From an uncultured Clostridium sp. (GTDB lineage Bacteria; Bacillota; Clostridia; Christensenellales; CAG-138): a DNA stretch of 64,000 bases. Shown here in pieces: positions 6,334 to 20,911 of the stretch. The stretch is from NCBI GenBank assembly GCA_964487565.1, contig CAZARN010000001.1, positions 93,536 through 157,535 on the forward strand. The letters run 5' to 3'. The notes below the pieces were generated by a model. It saw only the letters and a program-made list of their open reading frames with translations, ran no database searches and was not told the DNA's origin. Made by a program: the position numbers and the translations under genes. Each line of letters opens with the position of its first letter. Position 1 is the first letter of the stretch.

Positions 6334-6945
6334 TCAGCGGTTTTTGTCAAGATAAGCCTCGAGCTTCTTTTTTATGCGCTGAAGCGCATTGTCGACGGTT
6401 TTGGTGCCGCGGCCGAGCTTTTGCGAGATCTCCTGATATGAAAGCCCGGAAAGAAAAAGATCGAGCACCTGACGCTCCAGAGGCGTGAGCATACCGCGGA
6501 GCATATCCTCAACGCCTTCGTATGATTCGCGCGAGATGAGCATATCTTCCGGATTATCAACGCGCGAGGAGGCGATGGTATCCACGAGCGGCCGCTCGTC
6601 CGGCTCATCCTCGCTGCGATAGATGGAAACATAGGTGTTGAGGGGGCCGTGCTTTTTGCGCGCAGCCCGCTTTATGGCGGTGATTATCTGGCGATGGATG
6701 CACATGTCCGCGAACGAACGGAAGCTTGCTTCATGGCTTTGGGAATAATCGCGGATGGCCTTGAAAAGCCCGATCATCCCCTCCTGTATGAGATCCTCCC
6801 TGTCCGCGCCCATGAGAAAATACGGCCGCGTCTTGAGACGCACCGTATTTTTGTATCGCTCGATCAGTTCCTCGTCCGCAAGCTCGTCGCCTGCATGCGA
6901 GCGGGCAACAAGCTCTTCATCGGAGAGGACCGTGAGATCCGTCAT
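6334..6945 (-). CDS. sigH: RNA polymerase sporulation sigma factor SigH
   Basis: The 203-aa product has sigma-70 regions 2 and 4 (YKNTVRLKTRPYFLMGADREDLIQEGMIGLFKAIRDY...LSYQEISQKLGRGTKTVDNALQRIKKKL). It occupies the position at the end of an mrnC-rlmB-sigH-type operon that is conserved in Firmicutes. It overlaps rlmB by 4 nt (ATGA). Confidence 0.85.
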   Translation of the reverse strand: MTDLTVLSDEELVARSHAGDELADEELIERYKNTVRLKTRPYFLMGADREDLIQEGMIGLFKAIRDYSQSHEASFRSFADMCIHRQIITAIKRAARKKHGPLNTYVSIYRSEDEPDERPLVDTIASSRVDNPEDMLISRESYEGVEDMLRGMLTPLERQVLDLFLSGLSYQEISQKLGRGTKTVDNALQRIKKKLEAYLDKNR

Positions 6946-8303
6946 TTTGCCGTACCGTCCTGACGGCGCTTCTCAAACATGAGTATGGCCGCCGCGACGG
7001 AAGCGTTGAGGGAGTCTATCTTGCCCGTGATGGGTATGGAGACGAGGAAGTCGCACTTTTCCTTTATCAGGCGGGAAATGCCCTCGCCCTCGCTTCCGAT
7101 GACGAGCGCAAGCGCGCCCTCCATCCTCGCACGGCCCATGGGCATGCCCTGCATATCCGCGCCCGCGATCCAAAGCCCCTCGTCCTTGAGCCTGTCGATT
7201 GCGCCGGCAAGGTTTGCGACGCGCGCGACGCGGCAGTATTCCACGGCGCCGGCGCTTGCCTTGCACGCGGCCGAAGTGACCGATACGGCGCGGCGCTTGG
7301 GTATCACGATACCGTGCGCCCCGGCACAGACTGCGCTGCGAATGATGGAGCCGAGATTGTGCGGATCCTCTATGCCGTCAAGAAGAATGATGAACGGCTT
7401 CTCGCCCGCCGCCTTCGCGTCGTTGAGCATATCGGAAAGCTCGCAGTATTCAACGCCCGGCACCTGCGCGAGTATACCCTGATGGTTGCCGGTCTTTCCG
7501 CCGTGGCCGAAGGGCATGCACATCTCGTCGAGCTTGGACTTGTCCACCTCGTCGATGCGGATGTTCCTGTCGCGCGCAGAGGACATTATCTCGCGAAGCG
7601 AACCGTCAGGATCGCGTGAAACGAGGATCTTGTCTATGCTGCGACCGCTTTTGATCGCTTCGCGCACGGCGTTTCTGCCTATCACGAGATACGGAAGTTC
7701 ATCCTCGGGCGTGTTTGTGCGCTGAGCATCGTTAAGCTCGGGCTTCGCAGGCCTTGTTTCCGATTTACCGTAAATCGGTTTATTGTCATGGTCGTAAGGC
7801 TTTTTGCCTGATCTTTCCGTGGCGTTGACCGCGGAATTGTACTTGTCGCCGTATTTACGCGCTCCAGTGCTGTCGGCGTCGCTTTTTTTATAGCTTTTGC
7901 CATAGCTGCGGCCGTCTGTGCCGTAGGACTTGCCGTCCCTGGAATAGCCGCGGCCGTCTGTGCCGTAGGACTTGCCGTCCTTGGAATAGCTGCGGCTGTT
8001 GCCGCCGTAGGACTTGCCGTCCCCGGAATAGCTGCGGCCGTTGCCGCCGTAGGACTTGCCGTCCTTGGAATAGCCGCGGCCGTCCTTCGCGGAGGATTTG
8101 CCGTCGTTGAACACGGGCTCGCCGTTGCGGAAGGTAACAGGCGAACCCTCGCCCGAGGCGTTGCCGCGGCGTTCGCCGTTTGCGCCCGATCTGCCGCCGT
8201 ATGAGCCGCTGCTTTTACCGGCGGGGCGGGAATCACCCTTGTTGCCGTATGAGCTGTTCCTGCCGCCGTATGAGCCGCCGCTTTTGCCGTTTTCTTTATA
8301 CAT
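6942..8303 (-). CDS. rlmB: 23S rRNA (guanosine-2'-O)-methyltransferase RlmB/YacO (SpoU/TrmH family) with an approximately 200-aa low-complexity N-terminal extension
   Basis: The C-terminal 250 aa form a SpoU methylase domain (PYLVIGRNAVREAI...LDGIEDPHNLGSIIRSAVCAGAHGIVIPKRRA...ALVIGSEGEGISRLIKEKCDFLVSIPITGKIDSLNASVAAAILMFE). The N-terminal 200 aa are G/S/Y/R/K/D-rich tandem repeats such as GKSYGGNGRSYSGD. The start codon has an AAGGAGA Shine-Dalgarno sequence, so the extension is translated. Confidence 0.8.
   Translation of the reverse strand: MYKENGKSGGSYGGRNSSYGNKGDSRPAGKSSGSYGGRSGANGERRGNASGEGSPVTFRNGEPVFNDGKSSAKDGRGYSKDGKSYGGNGRSYSGDGKSYGGNSRSYSKDGKSYGTDGRGYSRDGKSYGTDGRSYGKSYKKSDADSTGARKYGDKYNSAVNATERSGKKPYDHDNKPIYGKSETRPAKPELNDAQRTNTPEDELPYLVIGRNAVREAIKSGRSIDKILVSRDPDGSLREIMSSARDRNIRIDEVDKSKLDEMCMPFGHGGKTGNHQGILAQVPGVEYCELSDMLNDAKAAGEKPFIILLDGIEDPHNLGSIIRSAVCAGAHGIVIPKRRAVSVTSAACKASAGAVEYCRVARVANLAGAIDRLKDEGLWIAGADMQGMPMGRARMEGALALVIGSEGEGISRLIKEKCDFLVSIPITGKIDSLNASVAAAILMFEKRRQDGTAK
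7890..8090. repeat. Tandem 42-nt repeats with at least 4 copies, encoding the [GKSYG(G/T)(N/D)GRSYS(G/K)D] peptide repeats of the RlmB N-terminus
   Basis: Copies beginning at about 7920, 7962, 8004 and 8046 share the unit gccgtaggacttgccgtccNtggaatagcNgcggcNgt. More degenerate copies lie on either side. Confidence 0.6.
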
Positions 8304-8305
8304 GT

Positions 8306-9076
8306 TTATCTCCTTATCAGCCGCTTTGCGGCGGAAGTTATCGTTTCATCAGATGCGCCGTCGAGCGCCATCGCGCGGAATTCCTCAAGATATTTGAGAC
8401 TGTCGCCGGGACGGCCGCAGCTCATTTTGCCCTCGCCGCACACGCCTGATACGCAGCCGGGACCGGCTTTTGCAAAAAGGTGCGGCGCCTCGCGCATACA
8501 GATGCCGAGCATGGCCCACGCAAGCGTCCGGATCTCCCATTGGGCGCGTGCGCAGCAGCGCAGCTCGAAAAAGTGCAGAAGCTCCCGGGCGTTCATCGTG
8601 AACACCATGCGCGTTTCGGCCGCGTTTGGAAGCACGAAGCGCGCGTCCTCGGGCGCGATACCGAAGGAGAGCAGCTCACGGTAGTATGCCTCGATATCCT
8701 CCATCATATCTTTGTAGCGCTGGAGCTTGTCCGCGTCGAGCGCCGCTATGGAGGGCGGTATTATATAGTTTGCCCCGTCCTGCTTGACATATCGCTGGCT
8801 TTGCACGGAGAAGCTCGCGATCCTGTGCCGGGTGATCTGCGCGAGCAGCGCGCGCGAAACACCCTGCGCGCCGAAGGTGAAAGAGGCGTGTTCGAGCGGG
8901 GAAAGATGACCGAGGGCCGTCAGCTGCCCGATAAACTGCGGCGCGCGCTCGCGCACCGCCTCGCTGAGGGAAAGTATGTCGCTGTCGCTGTAACAAAGCC
9001 TGCCGGCGAGCGCAATGGTCTCTTCAGGCTCCGGCGTGTGGGAAAGGAGCGACACGATGAATTGAGCTTCAGGCAT
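8306..9076 (-). CDS. thyX: FAD-dependent thymidylate synthase ThyX
   Basis: The 256-aa product carries the ThyX signature RHRxxSxxxQSxRY (ITRHRIASFSVQSQRYV). Confidence 0.8.
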   Translation of the reverse strand: MPEAQFIVSLLSHTPEPEETIALAGRLCYSDSDILSLSEAVRERAPQFIGQLTALGHLSPLEHASFTFGAQGVSRALLAQITRHRIASFSVQSQRYVKQDGANYIIPPSIAALDADKLQRYKDMMEDIEAYYRELLSFGIAPEDARFVLPNAAETRMVFTMNARELLHFFELRCCARAQWEIRTLAWAMLGICMREAPHLFAKAGPGCVSGVCGEGKMSCGRPGDSLKYLEEFRAMALDGASDETITSAAKRLIRR

Positions 9077-9566
9077 CGGCGTTCACCTCGTTCTTTTCAA
9101 ATATTATGCGCATAAGCTCGATGAGCCTTGCATCGTTGCCCTTGAGATATAAATAACCCATCAGCGCCTCAAGCCCCGTCGCGGTGCGGTAATCCACGAT
9201 GCTCTGGTTCTTGGCGACAGTGCCCATGTGCGCGTTGCGGCCGCGCTTGTATACGCCAAGCTCCTCCTCGCAAAGAAGAGGCTCGATGAGCCTTGCCGCC
9301 GTCGCCTGCCCCGCCGCGCAAACGCGCTGTGCGCTCAGCAGGTGAAGCTGATGAACCTTTGCATCCATGCGCTCCACAAGATATGTGCGCACGAAAAGAT
9401 CGTACACGGTATCGCCGATGTAGGCGAGGTTGAGCGCGCTCATCTGCGCGGGGTCCTTCGCGCCGCATTCCGGTAGCGCACGGTCCACGCAAGCCCTGAG
9501 TATGTGCATATTTCCACAAATATCATCCATCAATCGTATTATAACCTTACACGCATGAGGATTCAA
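9069..9566 (-). CDS. mrnC: Mini-ribonuclease 3 (MrnC/YazC)
   Basis: The 165-aa product has the RNase III-like signature LNLAYIGDTVYDLFVRTYLV. It overlaps thyX by 8 nt. The gene order mrnC–(thyX)–rlmB–sigH is as in Bacillus. Confidence 0.75.
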   Translation of the reverse strand: MNPHACKVIIRLMDDICGNMHILRACVDRALPECGAKDPAQMSALNLAYIGDTVYDLFVRTYLVERMDAKVHQLHLLSAQRVCAAGQATAARLIEPLLCEEELGVYKRGRNAHMGTVAKNQSIVDYRTATGLEALMGYLYLKGNDARLIELMRIIFEKNEVNADA

Positions 9567-9631
9567 GCAAAACCGCGCGTCGCGCCGCAGGTTAACAAAG
9601 TGTGACGAATCGCCTGCGGGGCGTCATAAAC

Positions 9632-9660
9632 CTTGCAAAGAAAATGGAAAGATAGTAAAA
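9632..9660 (+). promoter_or_regulatory. Sigma-A-type promoter candidate for the hydrolase–cotH operon
   Basis: TTGCAA (9632..9637), a 17-nt spacer and TAAAAT (9655..9660) lie about 55 nt upstream of the GTG start at 9715. Confidence 0.35.
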
Positions 9661-9714
9661 TAAACTGATAATATGTCCGCAGCATGGATTTTTGCCGCGG
9701 ATAGGAGGATTTTC

Positions 9715-10689
9715 GTGAGTTTTTCGCTTGAAGTCAAGAAGTTCATCAACTCCGAACATACAGGAGAGTATGTGGATATAATGCTCCCTCTGCAGGCGGA
9801 GGAGCCTGTCCGTCCGTCAAAAAAAGCAGCCGCTGCGGCCGACGGTGAGAGCGCACCCGAAAGCGCGCCCGAAAGCGCGCCGGAGCCTCAGTTTGAGACT
9901 GTCAAGCTCCATTATATGGAGGCGGGAGAGGGCGAACCGCTGATACTGGTGCATTCCGTGGGGCAGTCACTGTATACCTGGCGCAATCTTTTCGACAGAC
10001 TGTCGCAGCATTACCGCACGATCGCGCTGGATCTGCCGGGTCACGGCTACTCGTCAAGGCCGGAGAGCTTCGGCTATGCGGTGGAGGATATCGCCTTTTC
10101 GATCCGCGCCTTCATGGACGCTATGGGCATAAAAAGCGCGCATTTTGTGGGCTTTTCACTGGGCTGTGCGCCCGTGATGCGCATCGCCGCGGATAATCCG
10201 GAGCGGGTGGGCCGCGTGGTGCTGCTCTCTCCCGGCGGGGTGACGCCCGATATGCCGCTTACCGTGCGCCTTATCGACAGTCCGCTGCTCGGCTTTGCCG
10301 CAAGTTACCTATATAATATGCGAACCTGCGAAAAGCTGCTCAACGATGCGGTGTTCGACCTCACAAACATCACGCCCGACGTGGTGCAGGAGTATTACCG
10401 CACGATCTCGGACGGCGCATCTAGACGCGCCGTGCGCATGTCCCTTCAATGTTTCGAGGACGAAGCGGTGATAGCTTCGCTTCGCGATGTGCAGGTGCCC
10501 GTGCTCATCCTTCAGGGCAGCGAGGACAAATGGCACCCTGCGGAGGTCGGCGCGGAGCTTTATCACGCAGCCATGCGCAATGCCGCGTTCTCCGTCGTGC
10601 GCAACGCGGGGCATCTCATTCAGGAGGAGAAGCCCGAACGCATACTTGCCGCGCTGCTTGAGTTCATACCGGTGGTGATGCCTGAGTGA
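9715..10689 (+). CDS. Alpha/beta hydrolase fold protein
   Basis: The product has the HSVGQS...GFSLGC nucleophile-elbow region and Asp/His catalytic-triad context (GSEDKWHP...NAGHLIQEE). The N-terminus carries a SAPESAPESAPE repeat. The GTG at 9715 has an AGGAGG Shine-Dalgarno sequence 6 nt upstream. The track ORF starts at 9673 and has no Shine-Dalgarno sequence. The stop codon overlaps the GTG start of cotH (GTGA). Confidence 0.7.
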   Translation: MSFSLEVKKFINSEHTGEYVDIMLPLQAEEPVRPSKKAAAAADGESAPESAPESAPEPQFETVKLHYMEAGEGEPLILVHSVGQSLYTWRNLFDRLSQHYRTIALDLPGHGYSSRPESFGYAVEDIAFSIRAFMDAMGIKSAHFVGFSLGCAPVMRIAADNPERVGRVVLLSPGGVTPDMPLTVRLIDSPLLGFAASYLYNMRTCEKLLNDAVFDLTNITPDVVQEYYRTISDGASRRAVRMSLQCFEDEAVIASLRDVQVPVLILQGSEDKWHPAEVGAELYHAAMRNAAFSVVRNAGHLIQEEKPERILAALLEFIPVVMPE

Positions 10690-13673
10690 AAAAAGGTGCA
10701 AAAGCGCTGCTTGCGCTCATACTGCTTGCGGTCGCCGTGATCGCGGTGGCAATATATCTCGGCAAAACCCCGTCCGAGGACGGGGCTGCTGCGGCGCAGC
10801 TTGAAATAAGCGAGGTAATGTCGAGCAACAAAGGCTCCGTGGCCGATCCGGAGGGCAATTATCCGGACTGGATAGAATTCCGCAACATATCGGGCAAGGA
10901 GCTTGACATAGGCGGCCTCGGCGTGAGCGACGACCTGACGGCGGGCGTTAAATACGTGTTCCCGGCAGGCACGAAGCTGCCCGCGGACGGCTATATAGTG
11001 ATATGGTGTTCGGGCGAAGCGACAGACGATCTGCACGCGGCGTTCCGCGTGTCGGCGTCCGACAGCGTGGTGCTCTTTTCCGCGTCGGGCAGCACGCTCG
11101 ACACGCTCGTGCTGCACGCGGTGGATTCCGGCATGAGCTATGCCAAGGACGCATCCGGCTCATGGACGGCGATGCAGCCGACCCCGGGCTTTTCAAACGA
11201 CGAAGCGGGCGTTGAAGCATATAAGAACACTTTGCTCGGCCAAACGGACACGGGCATATACATAAACGAGTTCATGGCCTCAAACGCGACGACGCTCATC
11301 GACGCATACGGCAATTATTCGGACTGGATCGAGCTTTACAACTCCACGGACACGGATTTTGATCTTTCCGGGTGCGGTATTTCCGATACTCTCACCCAGC
11401 CGAAGAAATACGTCGTTCCCGAAGGCGCAGTGATACCGGCAAAGGGCTTCCTCGTCATATTCTGCTCCGGCAGCGAGGGCTTCGCGGAAAACGGGGAACT
11501 GCACGCGCCGTTCGGCCTTCGCGCATACGGGGAGGACGTCGTCCTTTCTTCGCCGACAGGCGCGATCATGGACAGCGTGACATATGAACGCCAGTCAAGC
11601 GACGTTTCAAGCGCGCGAACGCCTGACGGAACGGGAGAATTTGCGCTGAACACACACCCCACGCCCGGCTATGCGAACGACGATTCGGGCTATACCGCGT
11701 TCATGGCGGCAAACGCATATCCGCGGGGCGAGCTTTCAATCTCGGAAATGCTCGGCGCCAACGTATCCACAAAGACGGCGGGCGACGGCGGGTCCTACGA
11801 TCTCATTGAGATACACAACGCCGGCTCAGAGCCGGCGTCTCTTTTAGGGTATGCCCTTTCAAACAATCCCGGCAATCCGGGCAAATGGTATTTTCCGGAT
11901 GTGACGGTGCCCGCGGGCGGATATATTGTGGTGTACGCCTCCGGCCTTGACAAAAACGAAAACGGAGAGCTGCACACCAATTTCGGCATAAGCCGGGACG
12001 GAGATTCGGTTTATCTGTTTACGCCGGAGGCACAGCTTATCGACAAGCTTCAGTCCGGCGCTTTCCTCAACGATGTGAGCTACGGACGCGATGCGCAGGG
12101 GAAGCTTGCCTATTTTGAAACCCCGACGTTCGGCGCCGCAAACGGCACGGGCTTTGCCGGGATAACCGCGGAGGTGTCGTTCGATACAACGCCCGGCGTT
12201 TATGATTCCGCGGTGGAGATCACGCTGTCCGCGCCGGAGGGCGAGACCATCCACTATACGACGGACTGCACCACCCCCACAGCCTCCTCCCCCGTGTACG
12301 CCGCACCTATCCATGCGGAAAAGAACACGGTCGTGCGCGCGGTGAGCGTGCGCGAGGGCTATATCACCAACCAGACCGTGTCCGGCACATTTCTTTTCAA
12401 ATCGGACGGCGCGGATCACGCCCTTCCGGTGGTCACGCTCGTGACGGATCCCGATAACCTCTGGAGCAGCGCGACGGGCATTTATGCCTATGGCGACAAA
12501 TACGATCCGGACCTTGCGACGCTTGGCGACATACTCAACACGGCGCAGTATTATCTGAGCAAGAAGGACCCGGACGCATGGGAACGCCCCGCCTGCTTTT
12601 CCGTGTTTGACGAGAGCGGCAGCGAGGTTTTCTCGCAGAACGTAGGCATACGGATCGCCGGCAGCTTCGGGCGGGCGAGGGCGCAGAAGGGCTTCAATAT
12701 TTTCGCGCGGGATGAGTACGGCGCGGACAGAATGAAGTATAAATTTTTCGATCAGCTCGATTACACGGAATACAAGTCCCTCGTTTTGCGCGCGGGCGCA
12801 CAGGATCAGGGCAACGGCAAATTCCGTGACGAGCTTGCGACAGGCCTTCTTGCCGGAACGGACGTGAACATACTCTATCAGGCGTACAAGCCGTATGTGC
12901 TCTATCTCAACGGCGAATACTGGGGCGTTTACTTCCTCAAAGAGAAGCGCAACCGCTTTTTTGTGGAGCAGCACGAAGGGCTTGACAACGCGACAGATCT
13001 CGATATAATCCGCAGCTCGGATTATGCCTATTACGGCTCAAGCGCGCAGTGGAAGGAACTGATGAGCTATGTTGCCGCGCACGACCTCAACGACGCTTCG
13101 GCCTATGCCTATGTTGAGGAGCGGGTGGATCTTTCAAGCTTCATGGACTATATGATCTGCGAGATATATTCCGCGAATTCCGACGTTTGGAACATCCAGT
13201 ATTACAAGGTGGACGGCGGAAAGTGGAAATGGATATACTATGACTTTTGCTGGAGCTTCGGCTCAAGCGCCAATCAGTATGACCACCAGACGCTGTCGAT
13301 CAGGCGGCAGTCGATAAAGCCGTGCAGCGACCTTTTTAACGCCCTTTTGAAGGTCCCTTCCTGGCAGGACGCCTTTTGCAGAAGATTTGCCGAAATTCTC
13401 AAAACCGTGTATGCGCCGGAGCGTGTGAACGCCCTCATCGACGAGCTTTATGCCGAAACGGAGCCGGAGATCGCACGGGAGAGGGAAAAGTTCAACGGCT
13501 CGACATGGCTCGGCGTGAAACAGCCCGACGTGAATATTTCAAGCTATGACACGTTTGTGAAGCATGTTGAAATAATGCGCGAATTTGCCCAGAAACGGCC
13601 GGAATCCCTCAAAAAGCAGATTCAGAAGGAGTTTGGCCTTTCGGATGCGTATATGCAGGAGGTTTTCGGATGA
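10686..13673 (+). CDS. cotH: CotH family kinase-like protein with an N-terminal membrane anchor, three lamin-tail domains (LTD) and a CHB_HEX_C-like domain
   Basis: The 995-aa product has an N-terminal TM segment (ALLALILLAVAVIAVAIYLG). Three LTD-like repeats follow (GNYPDWIEFRN...; GNYSDWIELYN...; GSYDLIEIHN...), then a HYTTDCTTPTASSPVY (beta-hexosaminidase C-like) segment. The C-terminal CotH domain reads VFDESGSEV...GIRIAGSFGRARAQKGFNIFARDEYG...LVLRAGAQDQGN...YVLYLNGEYWGVYFLKEK. The GTG start is coupled to the upstream hydrolase gene. Confidence 0.8.
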   Translation: MKKGAKALLALILLAVAVIAVAIYLGKTPSEDGAAAAQLEISEVMSSNKGSVADPEGNYPDWIEFRNISGKELDIGGLGVSDDLTAGVKYVFPAGTKLPADGYIVIWCSGEATDDLHAAFRVSASDSVVLFSASGSTLDTLVLHAVDSGMSYAKDASGSWTAMQPTPGFSNDEAGVEAYKNTLLGQTDTGIYINEFMASNATTLIDAYGNYSDWIELYNSTDTDFDLSGCGISDTLTQPKKYVVPEGAVIPAKGFLVIFCSGSEGFAENGELHAPFGLRAYGEDVVLSSPTGAIMDSVTYERQSSDVSSARTPDGTGEFALNTHPTPGYANDDSGYTAFMAANAYPRGELSISEMLGANVSTKTAGDGGSYDLIEIHNAGSEPASLLGYALSNNPGNPGKWYFPDVTVPAGGYIVVYASGLDKNENGELHTNFGISRDGDSVYLFTPEAQLIDKLQSGAFLNDVSYGRDAQGKLAYFETPTFGAANGTGFAGITAEVSFDTTPGVYDSAVEITLSAPEGETIHYTTDCTTPTASSPVYAAPIHAEKNTVVRAVSVREGYITNQTVSGTFLFKSDGADHALPVVTLVTDPDNLWSSATGIYAYGDKYDPDLATLGDILNTAQYYLSKKDPDAWERPACFSVFDESGSEVFSQNVGIRIAGSFGRARAQKGFNIFARDEYGADRMKYKFFDQLDYTEYKSLVLRAGAQDQGNGKFRDELATGLLAGTDVNILYQAYKPYVLYLNGEYWGVYFLKEKRNRFFVEQHEGLDNATDLDIIRSSDYAYYGSSAQWKELMSYVAAHDLNDASAYAYVEERVDLSSFMDYMICEIYSANSDVWNIQYYKVDGGKWKWIYYDFCWSFGSSANQYDHQTLSIRRQSIKPCSDLFNALLKVPSWQDAFCRRFAEILKTVYAPERVNALIDELYAETEPEIAREREKFNGSTWLGVKQPDVNISSYDTFVKHVEIMREFAQKRPESLKKQIQKEFGLSDAYMQEVFG

Positions 13674-14368
13674 TGGGTGAAACGGGTTACCGTCACGAGC
13701 TGAAATACTATATAAATCAGGGCGATTACACCTTGCTTAGCCGCAAGCTCAGCCTTACAATGGAACAGGACAGCTACGCCGCCAGGGCAGGCGGAGAGTA
13801 TTTTATCCGCAGTCTGTATTTCGACGACCTTGACGACAACGCCCTGAGGGAAAAGCTTGACGGCGTTGACGACAGGGACAAGTTCCGCATACGCATATAC
13901 AACATGCGCGACGACGCGATAAAGCTTGAGTGCAAGCACAAGGACAACGGATACATCAAAAAGCAGTCCGTCGCCCTTTCCCGCGCGGAATATGAGACGC
14001 TGCGCCGCGGGGATTACACCTTCCTTCTGCACAGGCCGGAGCCTTTCGCAAGGCGCATGTTCGCGGAGTTTTCGCTGCGTCCGCTGCGCCCCGTCGTGAT
14101 CGTTGATTATATGCGCGAGGCATATACGTTCCCTGTTGAGGACGTGCGCGTGACGTTTGACAAGAACATACGCACGGCGATGCGCTCAACGGCCCTTTTT
14201 GACCCTCATGTGCCGACATATCCCGTCATCGAGGATTATGACATGGTGCTGGAGATAAAATTCAACCGTTATCTGCCGACATATATCCGCGCGCTGCTTC
14301 AGATGGACGCCCATGCGAGAAGCGCCGTGAGCAAATATGTGCTGTGCAGAAAATACGAACTCTCTTGA
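13670..14368 (+). CDS. VTC domain (CYTH-like polyphosphate polymerase domain) protein
   Basis: The 232-aa product starts MMGETGYRHELKYYI..., an ExK-type CYTH/VTC signature. It overlaps cotH by 4 nt (ATGA). VTC/DUF4956/CotH are known genomic neighbours. Confidence 0.65.
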   Translation: MMGETGYRHELKYYINQGDYTLLSRKLSLTMEQDSYAARAGGEYFIRSLYFDDLDDNALREKLDGVDDRDKFRIRIYNMRDDAIKLECKHKDNGYIKKQSVALSRAEYETLRRGDYTFLLHRPEPFARRMFAEFSLRPLRPVVIVDYMREAYTFPVEDVRVTFDKNIRTAMRSTALFDPHVPTYPVIEDYDMVLEIKFNRYLPTYIRALLQMDAHARSAVSKYVLCRKYELS

Positions 14369-14387
14369 AGGAGGAATAACCGCTTTT

Positions 14388-15038
14388 ATGTTTTCTTTTT
14401 CAGACATCTTTACCATCACCCTCAGTCCGCTGCAGGTCGTGGCAACGCTCGTCATTGCCTTCCTCGTGGGTCTTTTCCTGTTCTTCATATATAAGAAGAC
14501 CTTCGGCGGCGTGATGTATTCGCGCAACTTCAACATCGGCCTTATAATGCTGACGATGGTATCATCCCTTATGCTGATGCTCATCCACAACAGCCTTGCG
14601 CTTTCCCTCGGCATGGTCGGCGCGCTTTCCATCATCCGCTTCCGCACGGCGATCAAAGACCCGATAGACACCGTTTTCATGTTCTGGGCCGTGGGCGAGG
14701 GCATCGCAGTGGGCGTCGCGTTTTATGACGTGGCGGTCATCGCGGCGCTTGTCATCGGCGTCATCATGGTGCTGCTGACGGTCTTCCGCGGCAAGGGCAG
14801 CCAGCCGTACCTTCTCATAATCCATTATGACGACGCGGCTTCGGGCCAGATAAAGCAGCTCGTGAAGCAGCTTCCCGGCGGCAGGCTCAAGAGCAAGACC
14901 GTCCAGCGCGACGGCATAGAGCTTACCATGGAGGTGCGCCTGAGGGATAACGAGACGGGCTTTGTTGAAAAATTTCTCCGCGTGGACGGCGTATTCGACG
15001 CGGCGCTCATCTCCCATCAGGGCGATATCGTGAGCTGA
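14388..15038 (+). CDS. DUF4956 domain membrane protein
   Basis: The product has four TM segments and an LSIIRFRTAIKDPID motif. The ATG at 14388 has a GAAGGAGG Shine-Dalgarno sequence upstream. The track ORF starts at 14337, inside the VTC gene. Confidence 0.6.
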   Translation: MFSFSDIFTITLSPLQVVATLVIAFLVGLFLFFIYKKTFGGVMYSRNFNIGLIMLTMVSSLMLMLIHNSLALSLGMVGALSIIRFRTAIKDPIDTVFMFWAVGEGIAVGVAFYDVAVIAALVIGVIMVLLTVFRGKGSQPYLLIIHYDDAASGQIKQLVKQLPGGRLKSKTVQRDGIELTMEVRLRDNETGFVEKFLRVDGVFDAALISHQGDIVS

Positions 15039-15145
15039 GGCGGACGCTGCTTCAACAGACGCGAATTTTGGATCAAGAGCAAGGCTGTTTTAACAAACGG
15101 CCTCGCTTTATGTATAGACAAGGTTAAAAGGAAGGGCCGGAGCAA

Positions 15146-16879
15146 ATGGAACTCATCCGAAAATTCATCTCCTATTACAAACCGCACAAAAAGCTGTTCA
15201 CGCTTGACATGGTGTGCGCGTTCATCGTGGCCGTGTGCGATCTGTTTTATCCCATGATCGCAAAGGACATAATCAACACCTATGTGCCAGGGCGGGATCT
15301 GCGCTCCCTCGTCATGTGGGCGGCGATACTGCTGGGGATCTATCTGCTCAAGGCCGGACTGAATTACGTCATTCAGTATTGGGGCCATATCGTCGGCGTG
15401 CGGATGCAGGCCGATATGCGCCACGACATGTTCCTGCATCTGCAAAAGCTGCCGTTCTCCTTTTATGATGAAAACAAGACCGGCACGATAATGAGCCGCA
15501 TGATAAACGACCTTCAGGATGTGAGCGAGCTTGCCCACCACGGCCCTGAGGATCTTTTCATATCGGGTATAACGCTCGTCGGCTCCTTCATAATGCTTGC
15601 AAGCATAAATTTGTATCTTGCGCTTATAGTGTTTGCAATATTGCCGTTCATGATATTCTTCGCGTGGAAGATGCGCCAGCAGATGAAGACCGCTTTCCGC
15701 CGCACGCGCGAGGAAGTGGCCGAGGTGAACGCCAATGTTGAAACCGCGATCGCCGGCATCCGCGTTTCCCGCTCGTATACGGCGGCGCCCCACGAGAACG
15801 AGAAGTTCGACGTTGCGAACGAACGCTATAAGAAAGCCCGCGCCTCCGCTTACCGCGCGATGGCGGCCTTCGGCTCAGGCATGGCTTTTTTCAACGATTT
15901 TCTGTATGTCATCGTGCTTGTGTCCGGCGGGTTGTTCTTCTTTTACGGAAAGATCGACAGCGGCAGCTTTGCCGCGTTCCTGCTTTATATCTCCATGTTC
16001 ATGAAACCCATCAACCGTCTCGTTTCCCTTTTTGAACAGCTCCAGAACGGCATGACGGGCTTTTCGCGCTTCAACGATATAATGAATGTGAACGACGAGG
16101 TGGATGAAGGCTCCCTTGAGGCGACAGAGCTTAAGGGCGACATCGCCTTTGACGACGTGAGCTTCCGTTACAGCAATTCAGACGCGGCGGACGCAGAGGA
16201 AAAGGTGATATCCCATCTCACGATGCGCATAGAACCCGGCCATACCGTGGCGCTCGTCGGCCCGTCGGGCGGCGGCAAAACCACGCTGTGCAACCTCATC
16301 CCTCGGTTTTATGAGGTGGACAGCGGCTCCATCTCCATCGACGGACACGATATACGCTCCCTCACGCGCTACTCCCTCAGGCGCAACATAGGCATCGTGC
16401 AGCAGGATGTTTTCCTCTTTAACGGTACGGTGCGCGAAAACATCGCTTACGGCGACCTTGAGGCGACGGACGAAGAGATAATCGAGGCCGCAAAGAAGGC
16501 CAACATCCATGATTACGTCATGACCCTCGAGGAAGGCTACGACACGAACGTGGGCGAGCGTGGCATCAAGCTTTCGGGCGGTCAGAAGCAGCGCATATCC
16601 ATCGCGCGCGTGTTCCTGAAAAACCCGTCGATACTCATCCTTGACGAGGCGACCTCCGCGCTTGACAACGCCACGGAAATGCTCATACAGCAATCCCTCT
16701 CAAAGCTTTCCGAGGGGCGGACATGCCTTGTCGTGGCGCACAGGCTTTCGACGATCAAAAACGCGGATGAGATAATCGTGCTCACGCGCGACGGCATAGC
16801 GGAGCGCGGCACGCATGAGGAGCTTATCGCAGGAAACGGCATTTACGCCGGGCTTTACAAGTATCAGTTCAGGGAATAA
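15146..16879 (+). CDS. ABC transporter ATP-binding/permease protein (exporter)
   Basis: The 577-aa product has a six-TM domain and a nucleotide-binding domain with GPSGGGKTT, LSGGQKQRISIARVFL and ILILDEATSALD. Confidence 0.85.
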   Translation: MELIRKFISYYKPHKKLFTLDMVCAFIVAVCDLFYPMIAKDIINTYVPGRDLRSLVMWAAILLGIYLLKAGLNYVIQYWGHIVGVRMQADMRHDMFLHLQKLPFSFYDENKTGTIMSRMINDLQDVSELAHHGPEDLFISGITLVGSFIMLASINLYLALIVFAILPFMIFFAWKMRQQMKTAFRRTREEVAEVNANVETAIAGIRVSRSYTAAPHENEKFDVANERYKKARASAYRAMAAFGSGMAFFNDFLYVIVLVSGGLFFFYGKIDSGSFAAFLLYISMFMKPINRLVSLFEQLQNGMTGFSRFNDIMNVNDEVDEGSLEATELKGDIAFDDVSFRYSNSDAADAEEKVISHLTMRIEPGHTVALVGPSGGGKTTLCNLIPRFYEVDSGSISIDGHDIRSLTRYSLRRNIGIVQQDVFLFNGTVRENIAYGDLEATDEEIIEAAKKANIHDYVMTLEEGYDTNVGERGIKLSGGQKQRISIARVFLKNPSILILDEATSALDNATEMLIQQSLSKLSEGRTCLVVAHRLSTIKNADEIIVLTRDGIAERGTHEELIAGNGIYAGLYKYQFRE

Positions 16880-17241: not shown

Positions 17242-17459
17242 AAAAGCGCCCCCCTGAGGGAGGCGCTTTCTGTGCGTATATCGGGTTCCCCAACGGGGAG
17301 TTTGAATTACGCGCGAACCTTCTTGACGGTCACGACGGCGGCGGCGACGAGCGCGAGAGCGATCATCACGAAGCCAACCACGGTGGTGGCGTCACCGGTC
17401 TGCGGGGGCTCGACGGTGGGGTTGGTGACGGTGACATAACCGGCGGGGTACACGAGGGT
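17242..17459. repeat. Outer inverted repeat, left copy (3' end of gene A plus its terminator)
   Basis: This 218-bp segment is identical, apart from one silent GGT/GGC difference, to the reverse complement of 20759..20976. It encodes TLVYPAGYVTVTNPTVEPPQTGDATTVVGFVMIALALVAAAVVTVKKVRA. Confidence 0.85.
17245..17267. terminator. Terminator hairpin downstream of surface-protein gene A, forming part of the outer inverted repeat
   Basis: AGCGCCCCCCTGAGGGAGGCGCT is flanked by A and T tracts. It mirrors the terminator after gene B. Confidence 0.5.
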
Positions 17460-18431
17460 CTCAACGACCTCGTCGATGGTGCCAAAGTACTTCACGAAGT
17501 GAGCCTTGGTCATGGCGTTGCTGCCGTCATACTGGAAGCCAAGAAGCGCGAGGAAGTTATCGAACACGGCCTTGATGGCTTCGTACCTGCCGGTGGTGTC
17601 GCTGACGCCCCAGGCTTCAGTATCGTCGACACGGAAGATGTAGCCGCCGTTGGAAGCGGTGGAACGGGTGACATAATAAGTGCCGTCGCCTTTGCCGCCG
17701 TTGGCAACAGTCAGTTTGATCGCGCTGCCGGCGTCATCGTTCACATAGCCGTCCTTGACGGGGAACACAACAGTGTTCTTGCCATCGAAGATGGAGAAGG
17801 TGCCTTCGGTTGCGGCATCAACACCATTTGCGGTAACGGTGAAGGACTTGGTTCCCTTTGCGTTGTAAGCAACGAAGGTGTCCCCTTCCCACACATTGTA
17901 GTAACCGACGGACGCCTTGACGGTGGCATCCTTGCCGCCGGTGGTGCCCTGGCCTACAAACTCGAACTTGTACTCAAAGCCTTCGCTGGCAGTGTCGAGC
18001 GTGGTGCTCCAGGACTTGGCATCAACAACAACGTTCTTGGTGGTGCCGGCCTCGGAACCATCAGACAGCTTGGTGATATAGGTGGAGACCTTATCGATCT
18101 GGATGTAATCGGTCGAAACCTTTACCTTGAGGCCGCGGGCTGCGAGAAGCTTTACGTTGGCAGCGCTCAGATCGGCCTCGGCGGGGATGCTGACGACGAC
18201 CATGAAGTGCACGGGGGTGCCCTTCACGAGGGGATAGGTAGCGGTGAGCTCCTGATAGAGGCTGCCGAGGACGGCAGTGTTCTCTTTGGTCTCAAGGCCG
18301 TAGAGCTTGAAGGAAATAGCAGTAGCGGGGTCCTCATCAACCTTGATCGGATCCCAACCGGCTGCCATGGTGGGGATGGCGATGGCAAGCGCCATGGCCA
18401 GAGCCAGAACGAGTGCAAACAGTTTCTTCAT
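17307..18431 (-). CDS. Cell-wall-anchored surface protein, paralog A, with a signal peptide and a C-terminal (S/P)PXTG sorting signal (PPQTG)
   Basis: The 374-aa product has the signal peptide MKKLFALVLALAMALAIAIPTMAAGW. Its C-terminus is PPQTGD followed by a hydrophobic segment and a KKVRA tail. The mature region is about 50% identical to paralog B. The track ORF extends upstream to 18509 through an unlikely TTG/ATG extension. The ATG at 18431 matches the start of paralog B. Confidence 0.7.
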   Translation of the reverse strand: MKKLFALVLALAMALAIAIPTMAAGWDPIKVDEDPATAISFKLYGLETKENTAVLGSLYQELTATYPLVKGTPVHFMVVVSIPAEADLSAANVKLLAARGLKVKVSTDYIQIDKVSTYITKLSDGSEAGTTKNVVVDAKSWSTTLDTASEGFEYKFEFVGQGTTGGKDATVKASVGYYNVWEGDTFVAYNAKGTKSFTVTANGVDAATEGTFSIFDGKNTVVFPVKDGYVNDDAGSAIKLTVANGGKGDGTYYVTRSTASNGGYIFRVDDTEAWGVSDTTGRYEAIKAVFDNFLALLGFQYDGSNAMTKAHFVKYFGTIDEVVETLVYPAGYVTVTNPTVEPPQTGDATTVVGFVMIALALVAAAVVTVKKVRA

Positions 18432-18439
18432 CTCAGAAA
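18345..18439. repeat. Inner inverted repeat, left copy (5' end of gene A)
   Basis: This 95-bp segment is identical to the reverse complement of 19815..19909. It covers 8 nt of 5'UTR (TTTCTGAG), the ATG and codons 1–29 (signal peptide ... WDPI). Confidence 0.85.
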
Positions 18440-18543
18440 CCATGCTGCATAAGTATAAATTATATGCCGCCCTGAAAAGGACAGCATTTTTTGGTACGGG
18501 GGTTTGCATCGCGCTTGCTCACATGAAGCCGACAGTGCGGCGC

Positions 18544-19626
18544 TCATCCGCCGCCAGGCCCTGAACCGATATATGTGTTGAGGACTGCGGCCGCCTGCGC
18601 GCGTTTTGCTTCGGTCAGATGGGTGTATATCGCGAGCGTCATCTTCACATCCGCGTGCCTCATGAACGCCTGCGCGCTCTTTATGTCCACGCCCGCATCA
18701 TAAAGCATGGTGCAGTATGTGTGCCGCAGCATATGCGGCGTTATGCTGCCGATGCGCCCCGCGTCCGCGCTCTGACGGATGTGCTTCATCAGGCACGTCC
18801 ACGCGCACACGAACGCGCTGTATGTCATGAGCCCGCCGTCCGCGCCCGGGCATATCCATTCCGAGCGTGAACACGCCTTCTGCTGCGCAAGCGCGCCGAG
18901 AAGCACGGCCGGTATCGGCACGCGGCGCGAGCCCGCGCGGGTCTTGGGCGTTTTGAGCTCCGGCGTATTCTTTGCGAAGGAAACGGCGCGGCGCACGGCA
19001 AGCTCCGAAGCCTCGAAATCGATATCCTCCCACGAAAGCGCAAGCGTTTCGCCCCGGCGAAGTCCGCAGTAAAGCATCAGCATGGAGGCGAGCCACAGCC
19101 TTTGCCCCCGCGCGGCGGTGAACGCCTCCTGCTCATACGCAGAAAGCGCGCGGCGCGGCTCCCGCGCCGCGCCCGCCGCTTCCACGCGGGCGAAAGGATC
19201 GCCCGTCATGAGCCCCTCGTCATTCGCAAAGCCGATTATCTCCCTCACGACGGCCTTGATATCGCGCAGCGTCGTCGCCGCGTATCCCTCGCGCGAAAGC
19301 GCGCAGAGCATATCGCGCAGGTCGTTCGGACGGAGCGCGTCGAGCGCGGTCGAGCCAAGCGCGGGCAGGATGTGTCTGCCGATGAGGGAAGCGTATTTCT
19401 TTTTCGTGTTTGCGGCAAGCGCGGTCTCGCGCTGCGCGAACCATGCTTCCTCGGCCTGCGCGAAGGTCGGCCGCGGTTCCGTTTGGGCTGACGCCGGAGG
19501 GCGCAAACCGTCACATTCGGGGTATTTCCCGAGAAATATGTCGCGGGTTTTGCGCGCGCGGCGCACAAGGTCGAGCCGGCGGCGGTCTTTCCACGCCGCG
19601 TGGCGCGTTTTCAACATAAGCTCCAT
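18544..19626 (-). CDS. Tyrosine-type site-specific recombinase/integrase
   Basis: The 360-aa product has a C-terminal catalytic domain with R...HxxR...Y residues (HMLRHTYCTMLYDAGVDIKSAQAFMRHADVKMTLAIYTHL). It has a GGAAGGAG Shine-Dalgarno sequence. Confidence 0.85.
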   Translation of the reverse strand: MELMLKTRHAAWKDRRRLDLVRRARKTRDIFLGKYPECDGLRPPASAQTEPRPTFAQAEEAWFAQRETALAANTKKKYASLIGRHILPALGSTALDALRPNDLRDMLCALSREGYAATTLRDIKAVVREIIGFANDEGLMTGDPFARVEAAGAAREPRRALSAYEQEAFTAARGQRLWLASMLMLYCGLRRGETLALSWEDIDFEASELAVRRAVSFAKNTPELKTPKTRAGSRRVPIPAVLLGALAQQKACSRSEWICPGADGGLMTYSAFVCAWTCLMKHIRQSADAGRIGSITPHMLRHTYCTMLYDAGVDIKSAQAFMRHADVKMTLAIYTHLTEAKRAQAAAVLNTYIGSGPGGG

Positions 19627-19722: not shown

Positions 19723-19814
19723 GATGTCGTGCAATACGGGATAGTACCCAACAGCGGCATTTATTGCCTGCCGGGGTAACGCCCCGGCGACACACACAAA
19801 TTTGAAAGGAGTTT

Positions 19815-19909
19815 TTTCTGAGATGAAGAAACTGTTTGCACTCGTTCTGGCTCTGGCCATGGCGCTTGCCATCGCCATCCCCACCATGGCAGCCGGTTGG
19901 GATCCGATC
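19815..19909. repeat. Inner inverted repeat, right copy (5' end of gene B)
   Basis: This is the reverse complement of 18345..18439 (95 bp, identical). The repeat begins 1 nt after the divergence point of the upstream sequence. Confidence 0.85.
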
Positions 19910-20911
19910 CTGCCGTCCACCACCCCCACTGAGGCCATCACCTTCAAACTTATGGGCCTTCAGACTGAAAAGAACACCGCAGTCCTCGGCGGCCTCTATG
20001 AAGAGCTTACCGCTACTTATCCCCTCGTAAAGGGTACTGCTGTTCACTTCGTGGTTTATGTAAATGTACCCGCCGAAGCGAAGCTCAGCGCCGCCAACAA
20101 GTCCCTTATCGCGAACAGGTATCTCAACCTTAACGTTGCCTGCGATAACATCACTCTTGACAGCGTTACCACCTGGACCAACGGCGTCGAAGGCGCAAAG
20201 GTCAACCTTGCCGGTGCGAAGAGCTTCACCACCGCTTGGGGTACCGGTTGCTACGGTCAGGAATACAAGCTTGAGTTCTGGGGCAGCGGCGTCACCGGCG
20301 GTAAGGATTCCACCGTCAAGGCTTCCCTCGGTTACTACAATGCCTGGGAAAGCACCACTTTCAAAGCTTACAACGCTGACGGCGATCTCGCCTTCACCGT
20401 TACCACCGATAATCTTGACAAGGCTGTTGCGACCTATTTTGAGATCAAGGATGCGGACGGCAACGTCATGAAATTCCCGGTTGCCAAGGGCGTTATCGAT
20501 ACCAGCAAGGTCATCACCCTCAAAGTTGGTTCTAATACCTATGACGTGACCAGGTCCACCGTTTCCGGTATTGCGTTCAAGCTTGCCGAGAAGGTTCTTG
20601 ACGAGAAGAGCACCGGCGACGATGCCAAGACCTATGCAGCGCTGAAGAAAGTCTTTGACAACTACTTCGCAATGCTGGGCTTCACCTATGACGGAGCCAA
20701 CGCCATGACCGCCGAGCACTTCACCAAGTACTTCGGCACCATCGACGAGGTCGTCAATACCCTCGTGTACCCCGCCGGCTATGTCACCGTCACCAACCCC
20801 ACCGTCGAGCCCCCGCAGACCGGTGACGCCACCACCGTGGTTGGCTTCGTGATGATCGCTCTCGCGCTCGTCGCCGCCGCCGTCGTGACCGTCAAGAAGG
20901 TTCGCGCGTAA
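19823..20911 (+). CDS. Cell-wall-anchored surface protein, paralog B, with the same signal peptide and PPQTG sorting signal as paralog A
   Basis: The 362-aa product has its ATG at 19823, preceded by an AAAGGAG Shine-Dalgarno sequence. Its N-terminal 29 aa and C-terminal 50 aa are identical to paralog A. The centre is divergent. Confidence 0.75.
   Translation: MKKLFALVLALAMALAIAIPTMAAGWDPILPSTTPTEAITFKLMGLQTEKNTAVLGGLYEELTATYPLVKGTAVHFVVYVNVPAEAKLSAANKSLIANRYLNLNVACDNITLDSVTTWTNGVEGAKVNLAGAKSFTTAWGTGCYGQEYKLEFWGSGVTGGKDSTVKASLGYYNAWESTTFKAYNADGDLAFTVTTDNLDKAVATYFEIKDADGNVMKFPVAKGVIDTSKVITLKVGSNTYDVTRSTVSGIAFKLAEKVLDEKSTGDDAKTYAALKKVFDNYFAMLGFTYDGANAMTAEHFTKYFGTIDEVVNTLVYPAGYVTVTNPTVEPPQTGDATTVVGFVMIALALVAAAVVTVKKVRA

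Follow-up and report, generated by a model that had tools for sequence, protein, structure and literature searches.

A conserved CotH-VTC-DUF4956 gene cassette in uncultured Clostridia as a candidate trans-envelope phosphate-polymer module

A 64,000-nucleotide stretch of DNA from an uncultured, gut- or digester-type Clostridium sp. (GenBank assembly GCA_964487565.1, contig CAZARN010000001.1, positions 93,536 to 157,535 of the forward strand; hereafter the window, numbered from its first letter) carries five consecutive plus-strand open reading frames (ORFs) between positions 9715 and 16879, which encode an α/β-hydrolase, a CotH-type kinase-like protein, a VTC-domain protein, a DUF4956 membrane protein, and an ABC exporter. 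The same five genes are called independently on identical public metagenome contigs, where the genes upstream encode Spo0A, a DivIC protein, a sigma factor, SpoU, ThyX, and mini-RNase III. The primary concern of this study is the cotH, VTC, and DUF4956 genes. A first-pass annotation, made from the window sequence alone, had described them as a recurrent neighborhood with no assigned function, and such a cassette is indeed already in print, with its function unassigned; the form in the window is independent of pel genes and has a different CotH architecture.

The genes in this run are tightly packed, as had been claimed. The stop codon of the hydrolase gene and the GTG start of cotH (10686..13673, plus strand, 995 amino acids) have GTGA at 10686-10689 in common, and the cotH stop and the ATG start of the VTC gene (13670..14368, plus strand, 232 amino acids; PF09359), a candidate Vtc4-like polyphosphate (polyP) polymerase gene, have ATGA at 13670-13673 in common; both shared junctions had been pointed out and are present from the coordinates. 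The DUF4956 gene (14388..15038, plus strand, 216 amino acids) is read from the ATG at 14388, which is preceded by GAAGGAGG, and its longest ORF starts at 14337. It had been placed 20 nucleotides (nt) after the VTC stop, with the exporter following after a further 108 nt; the close spacing and the order stand, with actual distances of 19 nt and 107 nt. The domain assignments made for these genes all pass the Pfam gathering cut-offs. NCBIfam has no model for the three core proteins, and none of the three has a PADLOC anti-phage defence match.

Conservation was examined in 80 related loci, one genome per species, all from uncultured Clostridia (Christensenellaceae, Oscillospiraceae, and relatives) with VTC identities of 50-87%, by searching their ORFs with the window proteins. 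CotH, VTC, and DUF4956 genes are found together on one strand in 77 of the 80, bearing out the proposed co-occurrence; this number includes one locus (L079) in which the order is CotH-DUF4956-VTC. A CotH homologue lies upstream of VTC in 78 loci, and two of the 80 are cut by contig ends. When all flanking ORFs were clustered, the best-kept flanking gene cluster occurred in only 27 of the 80 loci, so the trio is retained beyond background gene order or chance. The cotH stop overlaps the VTC start (by -11, -4, or -1 nt) in 52 of 78 loci and the two genes are no more than 20 nt apart in 71 of 78; the median gap between VTC and DUF4956 is 63 nt. Judged from these junction sequences, cotH and VTC are shown to be translationally coupled across species. 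In one sub-lineage the flanking families are recF, gyrB, gyrA, mgsA, GT4, and two NAGPA-domain genes, which is ordinary synteny. In the Christensenellaceae-type loci (L048 1215-4791; clusters 8 and 9, in 19-21 loci) the region 2-8 kb upstream of cotH contains a divergent GT4 glycosyltransferase gene and a tandem pair of NAGPA (phosphodiester glycosidase) genes, one of which encodes a dockerin; MgsA and a DUF3592 gene intervene before cotH. These NAGPA and GT4 neighbors may reflect a link to phospho-glycan chemistry or plain synteny. A second, divergent CotH-family gene lies near the cassette in another locus (L005 18091-20604, minus strand).

When 1.8 billion representative proteins were scanned in full with HMMER, 6,202 relatives of VTC were obtained at E ≤ 1e-3, and the contigs of seven of these, at 35-46% identity, were examined as a distant set. 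DUF4956 follows VTC in all seven, including loci without CotH. CotH precedes VTC in four of the seven, among them a 993-amino acid protein from a human microbiome sample with the architecture of the window protein. In another of these four loci (L090) the CotH partner is divided into an LTD (lamin-tail domain) protein and a CHB_HEX-CotH protein. In L089 (291-2750) a 353-amino acid Laminin_G_3 (lectin-fold) protein replaces CotH in its usual place upstream of VTC-DUF4956, which suggests that the extracytoplasmic partner of the pair is exchangeable. The only pel context among the seven is in L093, with the order PelF-PelG-CotH-VTC-DUF4956-DUF4832. Since DUF4956 follows VTC in 7/7 distant loci, CotH is present in 4/7, and pel in 1/7, the constant core is VTC plus DUF4956, with CotH as the usual third partner and pel as an occasional neighbor. 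After the cassette in L093 there are also DUF4874/DUF4832, a second, divergent CotH-family gene (9043-10791), and a gene for a SpoIID-dockerin protein.

The window CotH protein starts with a signal anchor (amino acids 1-30, 10686..10775), consisting of MKKGAK and then about 20 hydrophobic residues, which is predicted to be N-in, C-out and is the sole hydrophobic segment of the protein. It is followed by three LTDs (10785..12065), a CHB_HEX_C_1/Fn3_assoc beta-sandwich (amino acids 502-569, 12189..12392; 53.6 and 48.9 bits), and the CotH kinase-like catalytic domain (amino acids 655-975, 12648..13610; PF08757, E 3.6e-40), all on the plus strand. The membrane anchor and three LTDs had been recognized previously and are both found: the anchor is single, and the LTD match (PF00932) scores 154 bits in three stretches against a cut-off of 34.3. 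LTD1 spans amino acids 34-141, while the limits of LTD2 (about 186-300) and LTD3 (about 345-460) are approximate; the repeats, which start at about 34, 186, and 345, have the motif I(S/N)E(V/F/M)(M/L) at 41, 193, and 352 and align pairwise. The LTD region is acidic, with a computed isoelectric point (pI) of 4.1, and basic LTDs as polyP binders were rejected for that reason. At the N-terminus, 67 of 67 full-length CotH homologues have a basic stretch, often with four to eight Arg or Lys, ahead of a hydrophobic one of about 20 residues. Because this anchor pattern is N-in/C-out and probably uncleaved, the LTDs, beta-sandwich, and kinase-like domain are predicted to lie outside the cell, in agreement with the earlier suggestion of extracytoplasmic display. 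The cytoplasmic tails of CotH homologues are often very Arg-rich (e.g. AKRRRRAAAARR), beyond the needs of an anchor.

The CHB_HEX_C domain matches the same domain of a beta-hexosaminidase (6q63) at E 5.5e-06. The catalytic domain scores 138.9 bits against a cut-off of 23.8, with residues 655-975 covering model positions 1-322 of 322. A profile of 26 CotH sequences matches Bacillus cereus CotH (PDB 5JD9/5JDA) at E 2.1e-06 to 5jd9, and D833 (NSDVWN) and D853 (YYDFCW), invariant in the 26 homologues, align with the NFD and WDYD aspartates of 5jd9. In Bacillus subtilis CotH, D228 is the catalytic and D251 the metal-binding Asp; D833 and D853 are the putative counterparts in the window protein, whose kinase-like domain appears to be catalytically intact. 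Both aspartates are kept, but Bacillus CotH has a single domain in about 360 amino acids and is made as a soluble protein in the mother cell, whereas the window protein is membrane-anchored with about 620 extra N-terminal residues, and its catalytic loop is two residues shorter (D-x-x-N versus D-x-x-x-x-N).

The VTC protein matches PF09359 with 127.6 bits against a cut-off of 23, residues 8-226 covering model positions 2-230 of 235; it has no transmembrane (TM) segment and is predicted to be cytoplasmic. It has no CYTH match in Pfam, and its close homologue in L034 has a weak one. Single-sequence searches of the PDB with VTC and with CotH found no relatives, and profiles were needed. A 47-sequence VTC profile matches the catalytic domain of yeast Vtc4 (3g3q) at E 6.1e-13 in HMMER, and Vtc2 scores lower. 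With Vtc4 residue numbers fixed from the 295-residue chain (offset 185), R8, K12, R73, R75, K89, Y147, and R149 of the window protein align with Vtc4 R196, K200, R264, R266, K281, Y359, and R361. In Vtc4, the triphosphate is held by K200, R264, R266, K281, R361, K458, S457, and Y359, and E426 binds Mn2+; K200, R264, R266, K281, Y359, and R361 are essential, and the inactive Vtc2 and Vtc3 lack K458. The equivalents of all six essential residues are invariant, as expected if the catalytic residues are kept. Across the 47 sequences (35-52% identity) the invariant columns are E10, K12, D34, Y44, Y50, K71, R73, R75, Y77, E87, K89, K98, Y147, R149, R160, D164, E195, K197, P203, and K222, and R8 and S221 are at least 90% conserved. 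E195-x-K197 and S221-K222 fit Vtc4 E426-x-K428 and S457-K458 by motif and spacing only, the HMMER alignments stopping before this region. The VTC protein is thus a candidate cytoplasmic triphosphate-tunnel enzyme of the Vtc4 type, and is probably active.

The catalytic domain of the yeast VTC complex belongs to the same Pfam family, and in both cases there is a genetic tie between a polymerase domain in the cytoplasm and a small membrane protein of several helices. Unlike the yeast proteins, those of the window have neither an SPX domain nor a Vtc1-type (DUF202) TM domain; catalysis and membrane insertion are divided between two proteins, of which the one in the membrane resembles MgtC, and a coupling of synthesis to translocation is inferred here. 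In some bacterial VTC proteins (L090 8001-9518; P0242 and P0268) the N-terminus is extended by 270-390 amino acids that are charged, repetitive, and apparently disordered and contain no Pfam domain; this extension occupies the place of the SPX domain in yeast Vtc4. Fusions of CotH to VTC or of VTC to DUF4956 were sought among VTC matches of 365-620 amino acids and rejected; these proteins have only disordered charged N-terminal extensions and no second domain.

The third protein scores 39.4-39.7 bits for DUF4956 (PF16316; cut-off 30.6), and 28 of 28 close homologues also match. A sub-threshold match to MgtC (PF02308; 12.7 bits against a cut-off of 31.4) is seen in all 28 homologues, with a best E of 0.0024, and is a resemblance to the MgtC family rather than membership of it: compared with MgtC/SapB/YhiD, DUF4956 is a Pfam family of its own with its own signature loop. 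This loop, R-F-R-T-A-x-K-D-P-x-D-T, has invariant R84, R86, K90, D91, P92, and D94, and the wider signature is GMVGALSIxRFRTAxKDPxDT. DUF4956 is also always paired with VTC, which is not a known feature of MgtC. An AlphaFold2 (AF2) model with moderate confidence (predicted local distance difference test score, pLDDT, 68.7) has helices at 14-38, 46-67, 70-87, 92-109, and 113-134 and an ACT-like C-terminal βαββαβ domain at 139-209 (pLDDT about 80). The protein had been described as a four-TM protein; it is a membrane protein, for which 4-5 helices plus the C-terminal ACT-like domain are predicted. The positive-inside rule predicts a cytoplasmic position, on the same side as VTC, for the C-terminal domain and for the loops YKKTFGGVMYSR, RFRTAIKDPID, and RGKG. 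DUF4956 is accordingly described here as a predicted MgtC-like membrane protein with 4-5 TM helices and a cytoplasmic ACT-like domain. The literature on this family is sparse, full-text searches having turned up only five papers in which DUF4956 is mentioned.

The two outer genes of the run are lineage-specific neighbors outside the conserved unit, because the hydrolase gene adjoins the trio in only 21 of the 80 related loci (in 7 of those on the opposite strand) and the exporter gene lies directly downstream in only 16. The gene run of the first-pass annotation is correct as to packing and too wide as a conserved unit. The hydrolase gene (9715..10689, plus strand, 324 amino acids) has a longest ORF from the ATG at 9673, and the GTG at 9715 is preferred as its start because AGGAGG lies 7 nt before it. 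The protein has no TM segment and is cytoplasmic; it matches Abhydrolase_1 above the gathering cut-off (113.9 bits), and no NCBIfam model reaches its cut-off. Ahead of its catalytic domain it has a low-complexity N-terminal stretch, AAAAADGESAPESAPESAPEP (9715-9900). The ABC exporter gene (15146..16879, plus strand) encodes a half-size, MsbA-like protein of 577 amino acids with a TM domain followed by a nucleotide-binding domain; ABC_membrane and ABC_tran are both above the gathering cut-offs, and the best NCBIfam match, MsbA at 480 bits, is under its cut-off of 602. A weak terminator-like hairpin in the gap before this gene (15082..15103, plus strand; 9-bp stem, 4 GC pairs, poor T tail) hints that the exporter gene may in part be transcribed on its own.

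Upstream of the hydrolase gene, a weak, overlapping pair of sigma-70-like sequences (9633..9672, plus strand), TTGCAA-17-TAAAAT and TGGAAA-16-GATAAT, each with 9/12 positions by consensus match only, is a putative promoter pair and may serve the operon. A perfect sigma-70 consensus, TTGACA-16-TATAAT (12/12), lies within the cotH coding region at 12982-13009, some 660 nt ahead of the VTC start codon. It was rejected as a candidate internal VTC promoter; its hexamers are kept in no related locus, so this match, rare by chance, is probably fortuitous or strain-specific. An Rfam scan found no credible riboswitch or leader.

The trio has been published as a set of accessory genes of Gram-positive pel operons. 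In streptococci, clostridia, and bifidobacteria, a cotH gene, a poly-phosphate polymerase gene, and a DUF4956 gene, together with DUF4832, directly adjoin pelDEADAFG (Whitfield et al. 2020, PMC7112168). In Streptococcus intermedius, SIR_1594-1592 are reported to encode a CotH that is secreted and keeps its catalytic residues, a Vtc4-like enzyme of the cytoplasm, and an MgtC-like protein that combines four TM segments with an ACT domain, and the trio was not found outside pel operons (bioRxiv 10.1101/2024.04.20.589940). The window genes belong to the same three families in the same order, and the predictions also agree: a secreted or surface CotH, a cytoplasmic VTC with intact catalytic residues, and an MgtC-like protein with an ACT domain. 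They differ in having no adjoining pel gene and no DUF4832 glycosidase after the trio, and the CotH-FN3 form of the accessory genes is replaced by a protein of about 1000 amino acids with a signal anchor, three LTDs, and CHB_HEX_C. No match to PelG, PelF, PelD, PelA, DUF4832, or ppk was obtained for the genes that were scanned in the 64-kb window, and no pel gene is among the conserved neighbor clusters of the 80 related loci; several of the distant loci likewise have the trio outside a pel context. Because of these results the trio is considered autonomous from pel in a large group of Clostridia, contrary to the conclusion of the preprint.

Our tentative interpretation, held with limited confidence, is that cotH-VTC-DUF4956 is the core of a self-standing trans-envelope phosphate-polymer module. 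VTC would make polyP from ATP at the inner membrane face. DUF4956 would be its membrane partner, in the role of the yeast VTC transmembrane subunits, and would either pass the polyP chain outward or regulate or gate the polymerase through its ACT domain. Surface CotH, acting outside the cell in an ATP-poor compartment, would use or act on the exported polyP to phosphorylate or polyphosphorylate surface or matrix targets, and the hydrolase and ABC exporter would be co-located extras in this lineage. It is doubtful whether the more specific form of this scheme is correct, in which the VTC polymerase and the MgtC-like protein deliver polyP to the outer membrane face and CotH draws on polyP instead of ATP, either as the donor of phosphoryl groups or as what it attaches.

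A number of observations weigh against this interpretation. We know of no protein-kinase-fold enzyme that uses polyP as a donor. The CotH ectodomain is acidic (pI 4.5), which speaks against simple electrostatic binding of polyP. Fold searches with the membrane part of DUF4956 matched no solved channel and no Vtc1-type subunit, and MgtC, its nearest relative, is known as a regulator, not a channel. For the VTC protein, C-terminal and N-terminal sub-profiles gave only noise against the PDB, leaving the E426 and K458 equivalences on motifs, and the AF2 model, made from a shallow alignment (72-100% identity), has a mean pLDDT of 43.9 and leaves the tunnel fold unconfirmed. The trio can also be incomplete: the L034 VTC gene (9983-10681, 65% identical) stands alone between a gene for a CvpA-like membrane protein and polA, with no CotH or DUF4956 within 10 kb, and the VTC-DUF4956 pair occurs without nearby CotH in two distant loci (L084 3980-7183 and L087 701-2097), in one adjoining spoIIP and in the other with VTC and DUF4956 overlapping by 28 nt. 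None of the deletions made for each gene of the trio in S. intermedius had a clear phenotype, Pel production and aggregation being unchanged, and a cytoplasmic location of the polyP was suggested by the authors (bioRxiv 10.1101/2024.04.20.589940).

Several of these points lead to a different account, the main rival, held with only slightly less confidence: VTC and DUF4956 could make or control polyP in the cytoplasm or at the membrane in the service of phosphate, Mg2+, or energy homeostasis, with the ACT domain sensing a metabolite and CotH an independent ATP-using ecto-kinase that is merely co-expressed. Consistent with such a regulatory link without export, MgtC targets ATP synthase and PhoR and does not work as a channel, the VTC-DUF4956 pair occurs without CotH, and the S. 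intermedius authors also favor cytoplasmic polyP. This account leaves unexplained, however, the overlap or close contact of cotH and VTC in 71 of 78 loci, the usual presence of an extracytoplasmic enzyme as third partner, and the source from which an ecto-kinase would obtain ATP. The published association with pelDEADAFG, together with the pel context of L093 and the CHB_HEX_C domain of the CotH protein, which is associated with carbohydrate enzymes, would suit an accessory set for a Pel-type exopolysaccharide, here acting on a polysaccharide encoded elsewhere in the genome. This seems rather improbable given the lack of pel genes in the window and of a conserved pel cluster in the 80 loci, the single pel context among the seven distant loci, and the unchanged Pel production and aggregation of the S. 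intermedius deletion strains.

The trans-envelope scheme also depends on VTC being a polymerase. A VTC protein that instead hydrolyses tripolyphosphate or polyP, or cyclises a nucleotide, would make this a module that degrades or senses phosphate polymers, and the triphosphate tunnel metalloenzyme (TTM) superfamily is functionally diverse (PMC4641920). The weak CYTH match of the close homologue in L034 points the same way, as does the fact that both the fold and the activity of VTC are read from sequence. Against this, the VTC match of the window protein is end to end with no CYTH match, the best solved relatives are Vtc4 chains, above the inactive Vtc2, and by motif the invariant Lys K222 fits Vtc4 K458, which separates the active polymerase from its inactive paralogues; a non-polymerase VTC is fairly improbable. 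The first-pass annotation had raised a relation to the spore or cell surface, and a sporulation module, in which CotH phosphorylates spore-coat proteins as in Bacillus and polyP is stored in or on the spore, has some basis in that CotH was first characterised as a spore-coat kinase, Spo0A is encoded nearby in this organism, and one distant VTC-DUF4956 pair adjoins spoIIP. The spore role is nevertheless very unlikely, because the conserved anchor places the kinase domain outside the membrane and not in the mother-cell cytoplasm, where the coat assembles, and because the trio is present in non-sporulating streptococci and bifidobacteria. In addition, there are no genes for CotB- or CotG-like serine-rich substrates nearby, and the flanking genes are housekeeping genes.

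Two other features of the window were observed. Between 17242 and 20976, two paralogous surface-protein genes (17307-18509, minus strand, and 19802-20911, plus strand) both encode a signal peptide and a PQTG sortase-type C-terminus, and neither protein has a Pfam match. A tyrosine recombinase gene (18544-19626, minus strand) lies between these two facing genes, and inverted repeats of 344 nt (90%) and 95 nt (100%) are found at the ends that they share. Such an arrangement resembles an invertible or recombining cassette by which surface proteins are varied. The SpoU/TrmH-type RNA methyltransferase encoded at 6942-8303 (minus strand) has a low-complexity N-terminal extension of about 190 amino acids, rich in G, S, Y, K, and R, with 'DGKSYG'-like repeats.

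Bacterial polyP synthesis is attributed to PPK1 and PPK2. Despite this attribution there are about 6,200 VTC-domain relatives in representative proteins, and full-text literature searches found no characterised bacterial VTC-domain enzyme. Secreted CotH-type kinases are also widespread, and their extracellular source of ATP is a puzzle. The cassette genetically links these two matters, the role of bacterial VTC proteins and the phosphoryl supply of extracellular kinases. New in this study are the delimitation of the core, residue-level support for a putatively active polymerase and kinase, and the finding of a stand-alone cassette in many genomes. Since the trio is autonomous from pel and VTC plus DUF4956 is a constant pair, the cassette is to be treated as a polyP/envelope module in its own right, and this autonomy may also explain the absent phenotype in assays focused on Pel. 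If the proposed mechanism is wrong, this is an ordinary, previously noticed cluster; if polyP is delivered outward and drives CotH, the cassette would provide a means to power phosphorylation outside the cell and a molecular role for the MgtC-related DUF4956 family.

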